From contig CADEEV010000001.1 in the NCBI GenBank assembly GCA_902826455.1, positions 298,983-362,982 of the forward strand: a stretch of DNA of 64,000 bases. The letters are read 5' to 3'. A model generated the notes under the pieces. That model searched no databases. It saw nothing but the letters and a program-made list of their open reading frames with translations, and had not been told where the DNA came from. Shown piece by piece: positions 13,962 to 19,884 of the stretch (its first letter is position 1; each line of letters opens with the position of its first letter). Made by a program: the position numbers and the translations under genes. Source of the DNA: an uncultured Acidobacteriota bacterium. Its GTDB lineage: Bacteria > Acidobacteriota > Vicinamibacteria > Fen-336.

Positions 13962-14953
13962 CGGTAATTGAGGTCGAGCTCGCGGCGCAGGTTGCGGGCG
14001 CGGTCCTTCGCGACCGAGTGGTCGCCGAAGAAGAAGTTCACGGCCTTGTTGTCGTCGCCGTACTTCTTCGCGAAGCGCTCCCACAGCGTCGGGCCCTGCT
14101 CGACGTCGTAGCCCGCCTCGTAGGCGTAGCGCAGGCCCACGCGGTCGGCCTGGTCTTCCTGGTCGCGCCCGTAGCCGCTCGTGAGCGCCGAGCCCAGCAG
14201 CAGCGCTCCGAGCTGGACGCCCAGGCGCTTGCCGGTGCCGTCGATCTCCTCGGCGGCGCCCGCGACCGCGGCGCTCCCGAGCATCACGAGGATCTGCTTC
14301 TTGTAGCCCTTGCGCGAGTGCTCGTGGGTTGCGTGACTCAGCTCGTGGCCGAGCACGATCGCGACCTCGTCGTCGTTCATCTCGTTCAGGAGGCCGCTGT
14401 AGACGTAGATGGAGCGATTGGGCGCCGCCATCGCGTTCCAGTCCTTGTTGTCGACCACGTAGACGCGGAAGTCGCCCGGCGTCAGGTACGGCGGGCACAG
14501 GCGCTCGACGATCGAGCGCACGCGGCGCACGGCCCGGCCCGACTCCTCGAGGCGGCCGAGCTCGACCCGCTCGCCTTCGTCGTCCTCCTCGAACACCGCG
14601 CCCTCGTCCCGGTACTGCTTCTCGGTCTGGTTGAACGACTCCACCAGATCGGACTCGAACAACGCGCTGCCGTTGGGCTTGGCCTCGAGCTCGTCGGCCA
14701 GCAGCGTCCCGTCGCCGAGGCGCGTCCCCGTGACCTTGACCTCGTAGCCGAGAGGGATGCGCGAGAGATCCCGCGTGGCCGAGCCCTTGAAGCGCGTCCG
14801 GGCGCCGACGCGCACGCGTTGCCCGTCGACGATCAGGGCGTCGCCGCGCTGGAACTCGGCGTAGCCCTCGTGCTTCTCGGCCGCCTGCAGGCCAGGCACG
14901 CCGCCCAGGGCGAGCAGGCCGAAAGCGAGCGCCGCAGCGCCCGCGCGCCTCAC
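13958..14953 (-). CDS. M48-family zinc metallopeptidase
   Basis: HELSH zinc motif (LGHELSHATHEH) plus a downstream glutamate; signal peptide. Confidence 0.85.
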   Translation of the reverse strand: MRRAGAAALAFGLLALGGVPGLQAAEKHEGYAEFQRGDALIVDGQRVRVGARTRFKGSATRDLSRIPLGYEVKVTGTRLGDGTLLADELEAKPNGSALFESDLVESFNQTEKQYRDEGAVFEEDDEGERVELGRLEESGRAVRRVRSIVERLCPPYLTPGDFRVYVVDNKDWNAMAAPNRSIYVYSGLLNEMNDDEVAIVLGHELSHATHEHSRKGYKKQILVMLGSAAVAGAAEEIDGTGKRLGVQLGALLLGSALTSGYGRDQEDQADRVGLRYAYEAGYDVEQGPTLWERFAKKYGDDNKAVNFFFGDHSVAKDRARNLRRELDLNYR

Positions 14954-15420
14954 GAGCGGTCGGAGGGAAGCAGGGCGCCCAGGGCCCAGCCGAGCATGCC
15001 CACGATCCCGTTCACGATCATGTTGGTGACGAGGCCGCCGACGCGCCGTCCCAGGGCCTCGCCCAGGGGGATCGCCGCCGCGACGTTCAGGGCCCGCGGG
15101 TTGTTGAAGTACGTGTCGAGGCCGAGGAGGTACGAGGCCAGGGTCGAGAGCAGGATCACCAGCTGGGTCACGAAGGCCAGCGCCGCTCCCATGCTCACGG
15201 CCTGGAGGAGCGTGAAGCCGCGCCAGCGCCGGCCGAAGGCGCCGTAGAAGATGGAGCCGAAGATCGTCAGGGTGACCAGGCTCATCTTGTCCGTGCCGAC
15301 CTCGTACGGCACGCGGAAGCTCAGCATCCAGCGCCCCACGGTCACGATCGCGAGCAGCACGAAGTAGGGGCGGGCAAGGCGCAGGTACTGGGCCATGGAA
15401 GTCTCCTGGGCGCGCATCAT
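14950..15420 (-). CDS. Small integral membrane protein (hypothetical)
   Basis: 156 aa with 4 predicted TM segments; ATGA-coupled to the M48 peptidase gene. Confidence 0.55.
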   Translation of the reverse strand: MMRAQETSMAQYLRLARPYFVLLAIVTVGRWMLSFRVPYEVGTDKMSLVTLTIFGSIFYGAFGRRWRGFTLLQAVSMGAALAFVTQLVILLSTLASYLLGLDTYFNNPRALNVAAAIPLGEALGRRVGGLVTNMIVNGIVGMLGWALGALLPSDRS

Positions 15421-15427
15421 AACCGGA

Positions 15428-15697
15428 TCAGCTCCAGCCCAGCCCGCCGCTCGAGGGATCGACGACGAGGCTGCGCGCGAAGGCCTCGAGGTCGACGAGC
15501 GCCGCTGGTGTCGGAGGCTTCGAAAGGCCGCTCACGCGGATCCCCGTGACTCGCCGGGAGTCCACGGCGTCGCGGACGGCCTCGGCGCTCGCGGCCTTCA
15601 GCAGGACGCGCGCGTAGTCCTCGAGCGCGACCTCGCCCGGCTCGTCGATCGCGTGACCCGTCGAGAGCGGCAGCAGGACGTCGGCCGGCGAAGGCAT
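15428..15697 (-). CDS. Hypothetical protein
   Basis: 89 aa with unbiased composition, packed tightly between the PilZ and membrane-protein genes on the same strand; no recognisable domain. Confidence 0.35.
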   Translation of the reverse strand: MPSPADVLLPLSTGHAIDEPGEVALEDYARVLLKAASAEAVRDAVDSRRVTGIRVSGLSKPPTPAALVDLEAFARSLVVDPSSGGLGWS

Positions 15698-15700
15698 CGG

Positions 15701-16390
15701 CTAGCCCGCCTGGACGAGGCGATCGGGGGCTTCCGCGTCGAGGAAGTGCAGGTTGAGCCGCGGGATCCGGTCCTGGCCGATGTAGACGTTGCAGATCTCG
15801 GCGCGGGTCTTGAAGGGTCCGCCCAGCTCCTCGATCATGACGATCTCGCCCTTGGCGAGCGGCAGCGACGTCATCACGCGCGCGCCGCCCTTGCCGAGGT
15901 TCTCCGCGACGGTGCGCTCCTCCGAGCCGCTTCCCGTGAGCCCGATCCGCTGCAGCTTCAGGTTCACGAACACGTTGTCGAGGCGCGTCCGCAGCCGGCG
16001 TTCCTTCGGCGGGGGAGGCGGATCGCTCGGGAGCAGGTAGAGGCCGCCGGGGTTCTTGTCGTAGCCGCGCGGGGGGGTCTTGCCGAGGAACAGGACGCCC
16101 ACGCGGGATCCCGCGCCCCGGGCCGCGCTCTTCACGTCGCGTACGAGCGCGTACACGTGGTAGGTCGACTCCGCGACGTCGTAGCGTCGGAAGCGCTTGG
16201 GGAGCGGCAGCGACAGCTGGACGGCGCGCCCGACGACCAGGCTCCGCTTGAGAGTGAAGGAAGCCCCGCCGATCGAGGCGTCGTCCGTCGACGTCATCTC
16301 GTCCCACGCGCGCCCGTCCGACTCGGTCCCGTGGACCTGGACGGGCAACGCGAGCGCCATCCGGGGCTCGTTGCGCCGCTCTCTGGACAT
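15701..16390 (-). CDS. Tandem PilZ-domain protein (putative c-di-GMP receptor)
   Basis: RRNEPR...DDASIGGASF motif (RxxxR / D-x-S-x-x-G) and a second PilZ-like half. Start placed at the ATG (MSRERRNEPR); the track ORF begins with TTG 13 codons upstream. Confidence 0.75.
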   Translation of the reverse strand: MSRERRNEPRMALALPVQVHGTESDGRAWDEMTSTDDASIGGASFTLKRSLVVGRAVQLSLPLPKRFRRYDVAESTYHVYALVRDVKSAARGAGSRVGVLFLGKTPPRGYDKNPGGLYLLPSDPPPPPKERRLRTRLDNVFVNLKLQRIGLTGSGSEERTVAENLGKGGARVMTSLPLAKGEIVMIEELGGPFKTRAEICNVYIGQDRIPRLNLHFLDAEAPDRLVQAG

Positions 16391-16411: not shown

Positions 16412-17974
16412 ATGCCGACGGTTTCGCAAATCCCGGAGTCAGAGCCCATGGACCGGCCCGCGCCCGCCTTCTTCGGTCGCTACCAGGTGCTCGAAGAGCT
16501 CGGCTCGGGCGCCATGGGCGTCGTCTACCTGTGCGTGGATCCGCGCCTCGCGCGGCCCGTGGCCGTCAAGGTCCTGAAGGAGTCGGAGTCCATGACGCCC
16601 GCGGACCGCGACCAGTACCACGCGCGCTTCCGGCGCGAGGCCGAGGCCGCCGGCAGTCTCAACCATCCGGGCATCGTCCAGGTCTTCGACATCGGTCCGT
16701 CGTACATGGTGATGGAGTACCTCGAGGGCCGCTCCCTCGCGGCGGCCTTCGCCGCGGGCGCGTCGTTCTCGGTGCGCGACATCGTGAATCTCGTGCAGCT
16801 CGTCGCCGACGCCATCGACCACGCCCACCGCAACGGCATCGTGCATCGCGACGTGAAGCCCGCGAACATCATGCTGACCGAGGGCGGCGGCGTGAAGGTC
16901 CTCGACTTCGGCGTGGCGCGCCTGCCGTCGTCGAATCTCACCGCGATCGGGAGTGTCGTCGGCTCGGTGCGCTACATGTCCCCCGAGCAGATGATGGGTC
17001 ACAAGGTCGACGGCCGCGCCGACGTCTTCTCGATGAGCGCCGTCGCCTACGAGCTGCTGACGGGACGCCCGCCGTTCCCGGGGAAGAGCGTCACCGACAT
17101 CGTCGCGCGCGTGGTCCACGGGCTCCACGTCCCGCCGCGTGAGGTCGACGCGCGGCTCCCCGAGGCGTTGAACGCCGTCTTCGCCCACGCCTTCGCGCCG
17201 CCGCCCCACAAACGCTTCGCGCGCGCCCTCGACCTCGCCCAGGAGCTGGCCACGGTCCTGGCCTCCGTGGCCGATCTCGAGATCCGCCATCCGGGCGAGG
17301 AGCCCGAGACCCTGCCGCCGCATGCCGCGGAGGCCGTGACGCCGCCCGCGGACGCGCCGCCTGCGACGCCCGCTCCGCCGCCGCCCACTCCGCCGCCGCC
17401 GGCGCCGGCGCGTCTCGTTCCCGAGGCGCCGACGACGCATCCCGAGGGGGTGCTGATCCTCGACAGCGATCCGGCCGGGGCCGAGGTGTTTCTCGACAGC
17501 AAGCCGGCCGGTCGTGCACCCCTCGACTCGGTCGACGTGTCGTTCGGCCGACACCTCCTGCGGATGGAGCTGCCGGGCCGCGAGAGCGTCTCGGCGACCA
17601 TCGAGGTGCGACCGGAGCGACCCCTCAAGATCGTGACGTTCACTCTGCCGCTGCCCGGCCCCGGGAGCGGCATGGTGCGGCCCGGTCAGCTCGTGAGCTT
17701 CGGGCCCGACGTGCTGCCGCCCGTGCGCATTTCCGGGCCGGTGCCGCGGCTCCCGGAGAGCGCTCGCGAGCGCGGCCTCGAAGGCACGCCCGCGGCGGAG
17801 GTGTGGGTGAGCGAGACGGGAGAGGTGTTCAACACGGCGCTCGTCGAGTCGGCGGGACGCGTCCTCGACGAGGCGCTCATCGCGGCCGTGTCACGCTGGC
17901 GCTTCGCGCCTGCGACACTGCGCGGCGTGCCGGTGTCGGTGCGGATCGTGATCCAGCACCATTTCCGGCGCTAG
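16412..17974 (+). CDS. Ser/Thr protein kinase fused to a Pro-rich linker, a PEGA domain and a TonB C-terminal domain
   Basis: Hanks kinase motifs (GSGAMGVVY, VAVK, HRDVKPANIM, DFG, SPE). A PEGA-like segment (GVLILDSDPAGAEVFLD), then a TonB_C signature (EVWVSETGEV...AAVSRWRFAPA). The true start is within the 859 aa track ORF at ATG 16412 (alternative 16448). Confidence 0.85.
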   Translation: MPTVSQIPESEPMDRPAPAFFGRYQVLEELGSGAMGVVYLCVDPRLARPVAVKVLKESESMTPADRDQYHARFRREAEAAGSLNHPGIVQVFDIGPSYMVMEYLEGRSLAAAFAAGASFSVRDIVNLVQLVADAIDHAHRNGIVHRDVKPANIMLTEGGGVKVLDFGVARLPSSNLTAIGSVVGSVRYMSPEQMMGHKVDGRADVFSMSAVAYELLTGRPPFPGKSVTDIVARVVHGLHVPPREVDARLPEALNAVFAHAFAPPPHKRFARALDLAQELATVLASVADLEIRHPGEEPETLPPHAAEAVTPPADAPPATPAPPPPTPPPPAPARLVPEAPTTHPEGVLILDSDPAGAEVFLDSKPAGRAPLDSVDVSFGRHLLRMELPGRESVSATIEVRPERPLKIVTFTLPLPGPGSGMVRPGQLVSFGPDVLPPVRISGPVPRLPESARERGLEGTPAAEVWVSETGEVFNTALVESAGRVLDEALIAAVSRWRFAPATLRGVPVSVRIVIQHHFRR

Positions 17975-17975
17975 G

Positions 17976-18242
17976 CTACTTCCGCGCGAGGTACCAGTCG
18001 GCGTCCATCTTCGTGAAGTGGGTCCACTTCTCGGGGACCTCGGCGTCGGGGAAGATCGCCTGGACCGGGCACACCGGCACGCAGGCGCCGCAGTCGATGC
18101 AGGCCTCCGGATCGATGTAGAGCTTGGTCTCGGCCTCGAACTCGGCCTCGTCCTTCTTGGGATGGATGCAGTCGACGGGGCAAACTTCGACGCAGGCCGT
18201 GTCCTTGGTGTTCACGCACGGCTCTGCGATCACGTAGGTCAT
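17976..18242 (-). CDS. fdxA: 7Fe ferredoxin (FdxA type, 3Fe-4S plus 4Fe-4S)
   Basis: 88 aa; CVEVCPVDCI and CIDCGACVPVCP cluster motifs. Confidence 0.85.
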   Translation of the reverse strand: MTYVIAEPCVNTKDTACVEVCPVDCIHPKKDEAEFEAETKLYIDPEACIDCGACVPVCPVQAIFPDAEVPEKWTHFTKMDADWYLARK

Positions 18243-18279: not shown

Positions 18280-19884
18280 CTACTGGGTGGCCTCGCGCCA
18301 GAGGGCCAGGAGGCGCGCTTCGTTGCCGTTCACCGCGAGTCCCCGACGCAGCTCGGCCTGGGCCGTCTCCTTGTCTCCGCGGTTGAGGGCGGCGCGGGCG
18401 TCCTTGAGCACGCCTTCGATGAGGAGCGAGGCCTCGGCTTCCTCGGCGATCTGCTGGGCCTCCTCGTTGCGCGGCTCACGCACGAGAACGGCGCGGGCCT
18501 CGGCGAGCGCCGCCGCGTAGCGCCCGGCGGCTAGCAGCGCATCGGCGCGCTCGACACGGCCGGCGGCCGGAGCCGGGATCGGCGACGAGCTCGCGCCGAC
18601 GTCGGGTCGCGGCCTCGCGAGGGTCGCCGCCGGCGCGCCCGGAAGGGTCGTCGCGGCGACGACCGGTGCCGCGGCGAGCGTCGTGGTCGGCGGCGGAGTG
18701 ATGGCCGTCGTGACCGGCGGCGCCGCCGCCAGCGACACGGGCGGCGGGGGCGTCGTCCGGCGGGACACGACGACGAAGCCGATCGCCAGGAGCGCCGCGG
18801 CCACGAGGCCCGCCGCGACCGGCCACGGCGATCGGGAGTGCCGCGCGCCGTCCGCCACCGCGAGCATCGGCTCCTCGGCGGTCCCCAGCACCTTCGGCGC
18901 TTCGAACTCCGGCGCCGCCGTGCCGAGGGCGATCGTCTCGCCGGCGAAGTCGTCCACGTGGGGGACCGGAGCCGGCAGAGGCGTGGGCGCCGGCCGCGGA
19001 ACGGCCGCGGTGCGTCCGGCCACCGAGATCTCCGAAGCGAGGGCCCAGTCCGCCGCGCCGCCCAGGTCCGCGAGGGCGCCGGCGAGGTCGGCCGACATGG
19101 TGCGGGCATCGGGATAGCGCGCGTCGGCCTCGCGCTGCAGCGCTCGAGCCAGGACGCCGCGCAGCCGGTCCCACTGGGAGCCCTTGGGAATGAGGCCGAG
19201 GTCGACGTCCTCGTGGGCGATCGAGTACATCAGCGACACCATCGAGTCGCCCGCATGGCCCTTCTCGCCGGTCACGAGCTCGTAGAGGATCAGGCCCACG
19301 GAGAACAGGTCGCTGCGGCCGTCGAGGTCGCCGGCCCGCACCTGCTCGGGCGACATGTAGTGGGGAGTGCCGACCACCATGCCCGCCGTCGTGACGCCGC
19401 CCGCCAGGCGTGCGACGCCGAAGTCCATGATCTTCGCCGGCCGGCGCCGCGGCAGGAAGACGTTCGAGGGCTTGATGTCGCGATGCACGATGCCGCGCTC
19501 GTGGGCGTGGCCGAGGCCCGCGAGGACCTGCAGCACGACCGGCAGCGTCGCCTTGGGATCGGGCCGAACACCGGCTTCGATCGCGCGCTGGAGGTCGAGG
19601 CCCTCGAGGAGCTCGAGAGCCATGAACGGCGAGCCCTGGTGGTCGCCGAGCTCGTAGATGGTGATGATGTTCGGGTGCTGGAGGCGGGCCGCGGCCTGGG
19701 CCTCGCGCTTGAAGCGCGCCCGGGCGTCGGCGTCGCCCCCGTGACCGGCCATCACCTTGAGCGCCACGGGCCGGTCGAGGATCTCGTCGACGCCGCGGTA
19801 GACGACGCCCATCGCCCCGCGTCCGAGCAGCTCCACCACCCGGAAGCGCCCGATCATCGGGGGCAACGGCGCCTCTCGCTTCAC
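18280..19884 (-). CDS. Ser/Thr protein kinase with one TM segment and a C-terminal TPR-like domain
   Basis: Kinase motifs (GRGAMGVVY, HRDIKPSNV, DFG, SPE); TM helix (VAAGLVAAALLAIGFVVV); helical C-terminal repeats. Confidence 0.85.
   Translation of the reverse strand: MKREAPLPPMIGRFRVVELLGRGAMGVVYRGVDEILDRPVALKVMAGHGGDADARARFKREAQAAARLQHPNIITIYELGDHQGSPFMALELLEGLDLQRAIEAGVRPDPKATLPVVLQVLAGLGHAHERGIVHRDIKPSNVFLPRRRPAKIMDFGVARLAGGVTTAGMVVGTPHYMSPEQVRAGDLDGRSDLFSVGLILYELVTGEKGHAGDSMVSLMYSIAHEDVDLGLIPKGSQWDRLRGVLARALQREADARYPDARTMSADLAGALADLGGAADWALASEISVAGRTAAVPRPAPTPLPAPVPHVDDFAGETIALGTAAPEFEAPKVLGTAEEPMLAVADGARHSRSPWPVAAGLVAAALLAIGFVVVSRRTTPPPPVSLAAAPPVTTAITPPPTTTLAAAPVVAATTLPGAPAATLARPRPDVGASSSPIPAPAAGRVERADALLAAGRYAAALAEARAVLVREPRNEEAQQIAEEAEASLLIEGVLKDARAALNRGDKETAQAELRRGLAVNGNEARLLALWREATQ

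Follow-up and report, generated by a model that had tools for sequence, protein, structure and literature searches.

TonB C-terminal domains (TonB_C) are treated as hallmarks of the periplasm, and the question raised by the locus described here is what such a domain does when it follows, together with a PEGA domain, a Hanks-type Ser/Thr kinase with no transmembrane (TM) helix in between. The gene is found in a 64,000-nucleotide stretch of DNA from an uncultured acidobacterium (assembly GCA_902826455.1, contig CADEEV010000001.1, positions 298,983 to 362,982), referred to as the window, in whose positions all coordinates are given. The original prediction, made from the DNA letters, offered two alternatives: the protein is exported or inserted by an unrecognised route, or the TonB_C fold is reused in the cytoplasm as a protein-binding module. 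A literature search on the combined TonB, PEGA and kinase architecture and on cytoplasmic TonB_C returned nothing relevant.

Results

The kinase–PEGA–TonB_C architecture proposed originally is borne out by Pfam, NCBIfam and AF2, which agree on it for the plus-strand frame ending at 17974 (Table 1). Residues are numbered from the in-frame ATG at 16412 (residue 1), which lies further upstream and would give a 520-aa version of the protein. The gene is likely to start at the ATG at 16448 rather than at 16412, because a GGAG site at 16435–16438 stands 9 nt 5′ of this codon, the N-terminal consensus of the homologs (M-x7-P-x-YFGRYQV) agrees with it, and the database protein with 100% identity to the window kinase has 508 aa.

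Table 1. Features of the kinase gene, its product and its neighbours in the window
Feature	Position	Strand	Protein or residues	Remarks and basis
Hydrophobic membrane protein gene	14950..15420	-	156 aa	End of the PilZ/p92 gene string; alignment, hydropathy
Uncharacterised protein (p92) gene	15428..15697	-	about 92 aa	Divergent; alignment, synteny
Tandem-PilZ protein gene	15701..16390	-	229 aa	Divergent; PF07238, synteny
TM-less Hanks kinase-PEGA-TonB_C gene	16448..17974	+	508 aa	ORF; start likely
Hanks-type Ser/Thr kinase domain	16469..17278	+	residues 20-289	Pfam PF00069, catalytic residues, AF2
Disordered linker	17291..17437	+	residues 294-342	Ala/Pro/Thr-rich, without hydrophobic segment; pLDDT <50 in the full-length AF2 model
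Single PEGA domain	17444..17647	+	residues 345-412	Seven-strand transthyretin-like beta sandwich
Conserved connector	17648..17719	+	residues 413-436	Motif RPGQ[LF]VxFGPxVxPP
TonB C-terminal domain	17720..17971	+	residues 437-520	
FdxA-type ferredoxin gene	17976..18242	-	88 aa	Convergent; separated from the kinase stop codon by 1 bp
Second Hanks kinase gene	18280..19884	-	TM residues 354-375	C-terminal TPR-like region; Pfam, KD 2.57

The kinase domain matches the Pkinase family PF00069 over residues 24–239 (E = 1.2e-46, 159.7 bits, cutoff 31.7) and carries the catalytic motifs GSGAMG, VAVK53, HRD147 (H145-R146-D147), N152, DFG165–167 and SPE191–192. All 117 family sequences keep the Gly loop GSGAMG, K53, HRD, N152, DFG and (S/A)PE unchanged, and S174 and T177 are conserved within the activation loop (residues 169–181). 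With the exception of this loop, the domain is modelled by AF2 at pLDDT above 90 in the full-length protein. Profile and signature motifs alike place the protein among the Hanks-type (eukaryotic-like) Ser/Thr kinases, and from its complete set of ATP-dependent residues the kinase is predicted to be catalytically competent.

The Pro-rich linker that the original prediction had seen between kinase and tail is confirmed, with a sequence resembling PPATPAPPPPTPPPPAP. Behind it, the PEGA domain is assigned both by a profile match above threshold (PF08308, residues 346–407, E = 6.7e-10, 39.2 bits against 20.8) and by its β-sandwich fold, and TonB_C by Pfam (PF03544, residues 445–519, E = 7.4e-14, 52.4 bits against 24.6) and by NCBIfam (TIGR01352, tonB_Cterm, 40.2 bits against 27.1). 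AF2 models PEGA and TonB_C, both at pLDDT 92.8; the C-terminal domain adopts the three-stranded sheet plus helices of solved TonB C-terminal domains, with 1u07 among the structure matches, and the contrary fold that would have spoken against the original prediction is not what the model returns. The TonB_C of the window protein reads P-x-[Y/L]-P-x-x-A, LEG, ESAG, LD and WRFxPA, followed by the edge strand GVPVSVRxxxQHxFRR; in its YP motif, Leu replaces a near-invariant Tyr. Across the family the canonical TonB_C motifs are kept, and the whole module of PEGA, connector and TonB_C is highly conserved, including the exposed last strand (GVPVSVR..QH.F) and the C-terminal QHxFRR. Pairwise identity within the family is 66.5% for TonB_C, 59% for PEGA and 51% for the connector, against 24% for the linker. 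Because 59–67% of positions are identical in the two domains across the family compared to 24% in the linker, the tail is, as judged from these alignments, functional and under purifying selection. The full-length AF2 model (pTM 0.59) has a disordered linker and no confident contact between tail and kinase, and so lends no support to autoregulation by tail–kinase docking.

The absence of a TM segment, a central element of the original prediction, was examined by Kyte–Doolittle hydropathy averaged over 19 residues (KD19). The window protein reaches a maximum of 1.25, located within the kinase domain, and the neighbouring kinase (18280–19884, minus strand), used as positive control, reaches 2.57 at its TM helix. 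No 19-residue span above 1.50 is found in the linker of any of the 117 aligned homologs, in which the linker varies from 22 to 132 aa and its maximum KD19 is 1.50; spans above 1.6 occur in the family only in the kinase or in the β2/α2 core of TonB_C, where they contain Asp or Glu. All 28 metagenomic loci have kinase and module in one uninterrupted frame, with a linker KD below 1.6. In the window protein and its homologs, the first residues run directly into the kinase glycine loop with no N-terminal leader, and the 117 proteins and 28 loci revealed neither a leader peptide nor any hydrophobic stretch outside the domain cores. Judged by its positive controls, namely 13 TM-bearing relatives and the neighbouring kinase, hydropathy rules out a TM helix hidden in the linker or elsewhere in the protein.

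A sequencing or assembly error in one assembly, be it a frameshift or a deletion, could in principle have removed a TM helix or fused two genes. The sole basis for this idea is the high GC content of the assembly, where such errors occur, and no evidence for it was found. The best 120 database homologs (52–100% identity; NCBI, JGI, ENA and Logan sources) all have kinase, PEGA and TonB_C. One frame is kept in these homologs and in the 28 independently assembled loci, so that the frameshift or split gene envisaged as a refutation of the original prediction is ruled out. Short matches that might have represented stand-alone PEGA–TonB_C proteins are explained as contig-end fragments or frameshifted calls, and an artefact is on all these counts extremely improbable. 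The source labels assign the family to "Vicinamibacteria bacterium" or "Acidobacteria bacterium".

Relatives of the module were drawn from the 150 best cluster representatives. Outside the family, every full-length relative checked places either a TM helix or a hydrophobic N-terminal leader before the module, in keeping with the normally extracytoplasmic place of PEGA and TonB_C that the original prediction had assumed. The nearest are receptor kinases built as kinase-TM-PEGA-PEGA-TonB_C, and 13 of the 13 kinase relatives checked show an Arg/Lys-flanked segment of KD 1.69–3.08 between kinase and PEGA; relatives with tandem TonB_C or PEGA have a hydrophobic leader or a BlaR1-like TM bundle at the N-terminus. 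The receptor kinases (e.g., P0186, P0243, P0247, P0238 and P0257) are uncharacterised and known from genome and metagenome predictions only. They share with the window family a homologous kinase and the module, including the connector motif, at 35–42% module identity and colinear with PEGA2 plus TonB_C, such that the PEGA of the window protein aligns to the second PEGA of the TM-bearing proteins. They differ in having a strong TM helix with the module outside the cytoplasm, whereas the window family has none, and in having two tandem PEGA domains compared to one PEGA stretch. Their genomic context differs as well, P0186 following an LptF/LptG gene. Four clusters of TM-bearing relatives, drawn at 50% identity (P0180, P0182, P0218 and P0276), carry a PilZ domain fused to the N-terminal side of the kinase.

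A kinase-domain NJ tree recovers the TM-less family as monophyletic in 100 of 100 bootstraps and nests it among TM-bearing PEGA kinases, which surround it; the tree is a plain distance tree with a single paralog as root, and its deep branches are unsupported. Because the TM-less family is monophyletic and nested in this way, we infer that it has lost the TM helix together with the first PEGA. The tail itself appears homologous to, and most likely descended from, the periplasmic ectodomain of the kinase-TM-PEGA-PEGA-TonB_C receptor kinases.

Among the neighbouring genes, the divergent tandem-PilZ gene noted in the original prediction is real. Its product matches PF07238 in two stretches (E = 3.6e-13, 50.2 bits); the first domain has the RRxxxR and DxSxxG motifs (RRNEPR...DASIGG) and the second has RRLRTR but NLGKGG, with Gly in place of Ser. 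By profile and motifs, it is a putative PilZ c-di-GMP receptor. The proposed spacing of 22 bp needs revision: since the kinase probably starts at 16448, the gap from the PilZ ATG at 16390 is 57 bp. The two genes adjoin each other in 20 of 31 related loci, which qualifies the divergent pairing as a recurrent rather than a constant one. Independent support for a PilZ link to the kinase comes from the PilZ–kinase fusions in the sister receptor kinases, and this link is at the domain level, as phmmer found no direct similarity between the window PilZ protein and the fused PilZ domains.

The most constant divergent neighbour, which the original prediction did not mention, is the p92 gene, found upstream of the kinase in 27 of 28 assessable loci. 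Its product carries the motifs EVALEDYAR, DLE[DA]FARSL and a C-terminal GGLGW[ST]. The family comprises 938 members of about 92 aa and has no Pfam, NCBIfam or credible PDB relative; the sole PDB match, to a cytochrome bc1 core subunit (E = 0.0016), was treated as chance. For at least 18 of the 120 top-ranked p92 homologs, a kinase homolog is encoded on the same contig, and some of these contigs span 2–10 kb. Gene linkage makes p92 a candidate partner or substrate of the kinase, and in two-thirds of the loci it makes the tandem-PilZ protein a candidate partner. The membrane protein encoded at the end of the same gene string (49–57% identity) is kept in a subset of loci and, by tblastn, missing from many.

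On the other side, the ferredoxin gene is downstream of the kinase in 35 of 37 loci; its product matches Fer4 families and scores below the cutoffs of the NCBIfam FdxA models. The second Hanks kinase is kept in five of six loci inspected. Because p92, the ferredoxin and the second kinase belong to a stretch of housekeeping genes with broadly conserved synteny (RtcB, S58 peptidase, D-Tyr deacylase, fumarase), adjacency of the neighbours may partly reflect conserved gene order. No ExbB/ExbD family is present among the neighbours annotated for the window and for six related loci. The gene for an Oar-like TonB-dependent receptor lies 16 kb from the kinase.

Discussion

The collective evidence is best understood, with a probability that we put at roughly 0.6, in terms of a soluble cytoplasmic Hanks kinase, conserved as a family in the Vicinamibacteria (Acidobacteriota), whose tail derives from a receptor ectodomain and now serves as a docking module. 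Hydropathy and the kinase's need for ATP argue for the cytoplasmic location of the tail. We infer which way evolution ran, that the tail serves in docking and which proteins are candidate partners; on a soluble kinase, the tail most likely acts as a module for docking or regulation. The ancestor would have been a receptor kinase of the kinase-TM-PEGA-PEGA-TonB_C type with a periplasmic ectodomain, from which a deletion took out the TM helix and the first PEGA. What remained of the ectodomain would have stayed on the cytoplasmic side, tethered via a flexible Pro/Ala/Thr linker of 22–132 residues and kept by purifying selection with its canonical TonB_C core and free edge β-strand. As a tethered protein- or peptide-docking module, which is its most likely mode of action, the tail would capture an extended stretch of a partner protein through β-strand addition, similar to TonB with the TonB box, and docking would deliver a substrate or regulator to the kinase, or else induce the dimerisation by which Hanks kinases are activated. 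A more specific version, which is possible though rather improbable as a whole, is that TonB_C has moved to the cytoplasm to read TonB-box-like or other extended β-strands, with the kinase coupling c-di-GMP or envelope-biogenesis status to Ser/Thr phosphorylation; its targets could be p92, a PilZ c-di-GMP receptor or precursors of TonB-dependent outer-membrane receptors not yet exported.

Of the two alternatives offered originally, cytoplasmic reuse of TonB_C is thus favoured by the lack of a leader or hydrophobic stretch, the intact kinase and the apparent purifying selection, and export is unsupported. A tail still in the periplasm, where the whole protein or its C-terminal half would be brought by an unrecognised route or a partner membrane protein to meet TonB boxes, would agree with the extracytoplasmic place of TonB_C and PEGA in every relative examined, with the canonical TonB_C residues still present, with the small membrane protein gene in the divergent string and with the Oar-like receptor gene 16 kb away. 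Against this stand an N-terminus leading straight to the glycine loop, the absence of any hydrophobic or amphipathic segment, a Pro-rich linker very variable in length and sequence, a kinase with all its ATP-dependent catalytic residues, and the absence of the membrane-protein gene from many loci. Furthermore, we know of no system that translocates an internal or C-terminal half of a protein without a TM segment or signal. On overall weighing, nothing speaks in favour of export by an unknown route, and a periplasmic tail seems highly unlikely.

Less easily dismissed, though still improbable, is a tail that recruits no specific partner and is retained for structural reasons alone, its effect being limited to the dimerisation or stability of the kinase, or to how soluble the kinase is and how fast it turns over. 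Isolated TonB C-terminal domain fragments form dimers, dimerisation activates Hanks kinases of the PknB type, and no partner was identified in the present analysis. The module is, however, highly conserved throughout, its exposed last strand and QHxFRR included, which exceeds the need of a generic dimeriser, and the tight linkage to p92 (27 of 28) suggests a dedicated partner. In a further reading, the cytoplasmic TonB_C would bind the adjacent ferredoxin in the manner of FusB, with the effect that redox or iron status would be coupled to phosphorylation. We consider this a distant prospect, considering that the kinase and ferredoxin genes are convergent and hence not co-transcribed, that the entire block is syntenic with housekeeping genes, that the neighbour is an FdxA-type 4Fe-4S protein whereas FusB binds a plant 2Fe-2S ferredoxin, and that FusB is no better a structural match to the tail than ordinary TonBs.

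If the cytoplasmic location and a ligand were confirmed, TonB_C/PEGA would emerge as a portable peptide-docking unit usable on either side of the inner membrane, and the family would offer a natural example of a receptor kinase turned soluble by anchor loss with retention of its sensor. It would also provide a handle on Ser/Thr signalling, possibly c-di-GMP-linked, in the Vicinamibacteria, a soil lineage that is abundant and has barely been studied. Should the cytoplasmic reading of β-strands be true, it would be the first case of a TonB_C fold put to functional use in the cytoplasm, through an ectodomain repurposed after anchor loss; a tail that is just a dimeriser would reduce the case to a minor architectural curiosity. 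The TM-bearing sister family (kinase-TM-PEGA2-TonB_C) in turn suggests that some kinases may monitor, in the periplasm, whether TonB boxes are exposed.

Lastly, parallels in known systems help to delimit what the protein may be. The Serratia marcescens T6SS kinase PpkA has a periplasmic domain that binds RtkS (PMC6082577; PDB 9k1u); this domain is located behind a TM helix and involves no TonB_C, and the similarity to the window protein is weak. Soluble Hanks kinases of the PknG type are reported to use a non-catalytic repeat domain as docking scaffold (PMC8546545). The likeness is one of working principle, in that a soluble kinase would receive specificity or input from an appended interaction domain; the accessory fold, TPR in PknG compared to PEGA/TonB_C here, is unrelated, with no homology beyond the kinase domain. 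FusB, a TonB paralogue, is reported to bind ferredoxin through its C-terminal domain (PMC7593965; PDB 7zc8, 9hi3). The FusB–ferredoxin complex (9hi3) is a precedent for a TonB_C fold binding a folded protein instead of a TonB box; FusB is a TM-anchored periplasmic energy transducer, unlike the window protein. The class of C-terminal domain that the tail matches is that of TonB itself (E. coli, P. aeruginosa, N. meningitidis; PF03544/TIGR01352). As the window protein lacks both the N-terminal TM anchor and the ExbB/ExbD coupling region, is not predicted to be periplasmic and has a kinase instead, it is by its sequence features not TonB proper, despite the "TonB family protein" label in some sources. 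For this kinase family the label is wrong in function: in the place of the membrane anchor of TonB stands a kinase.

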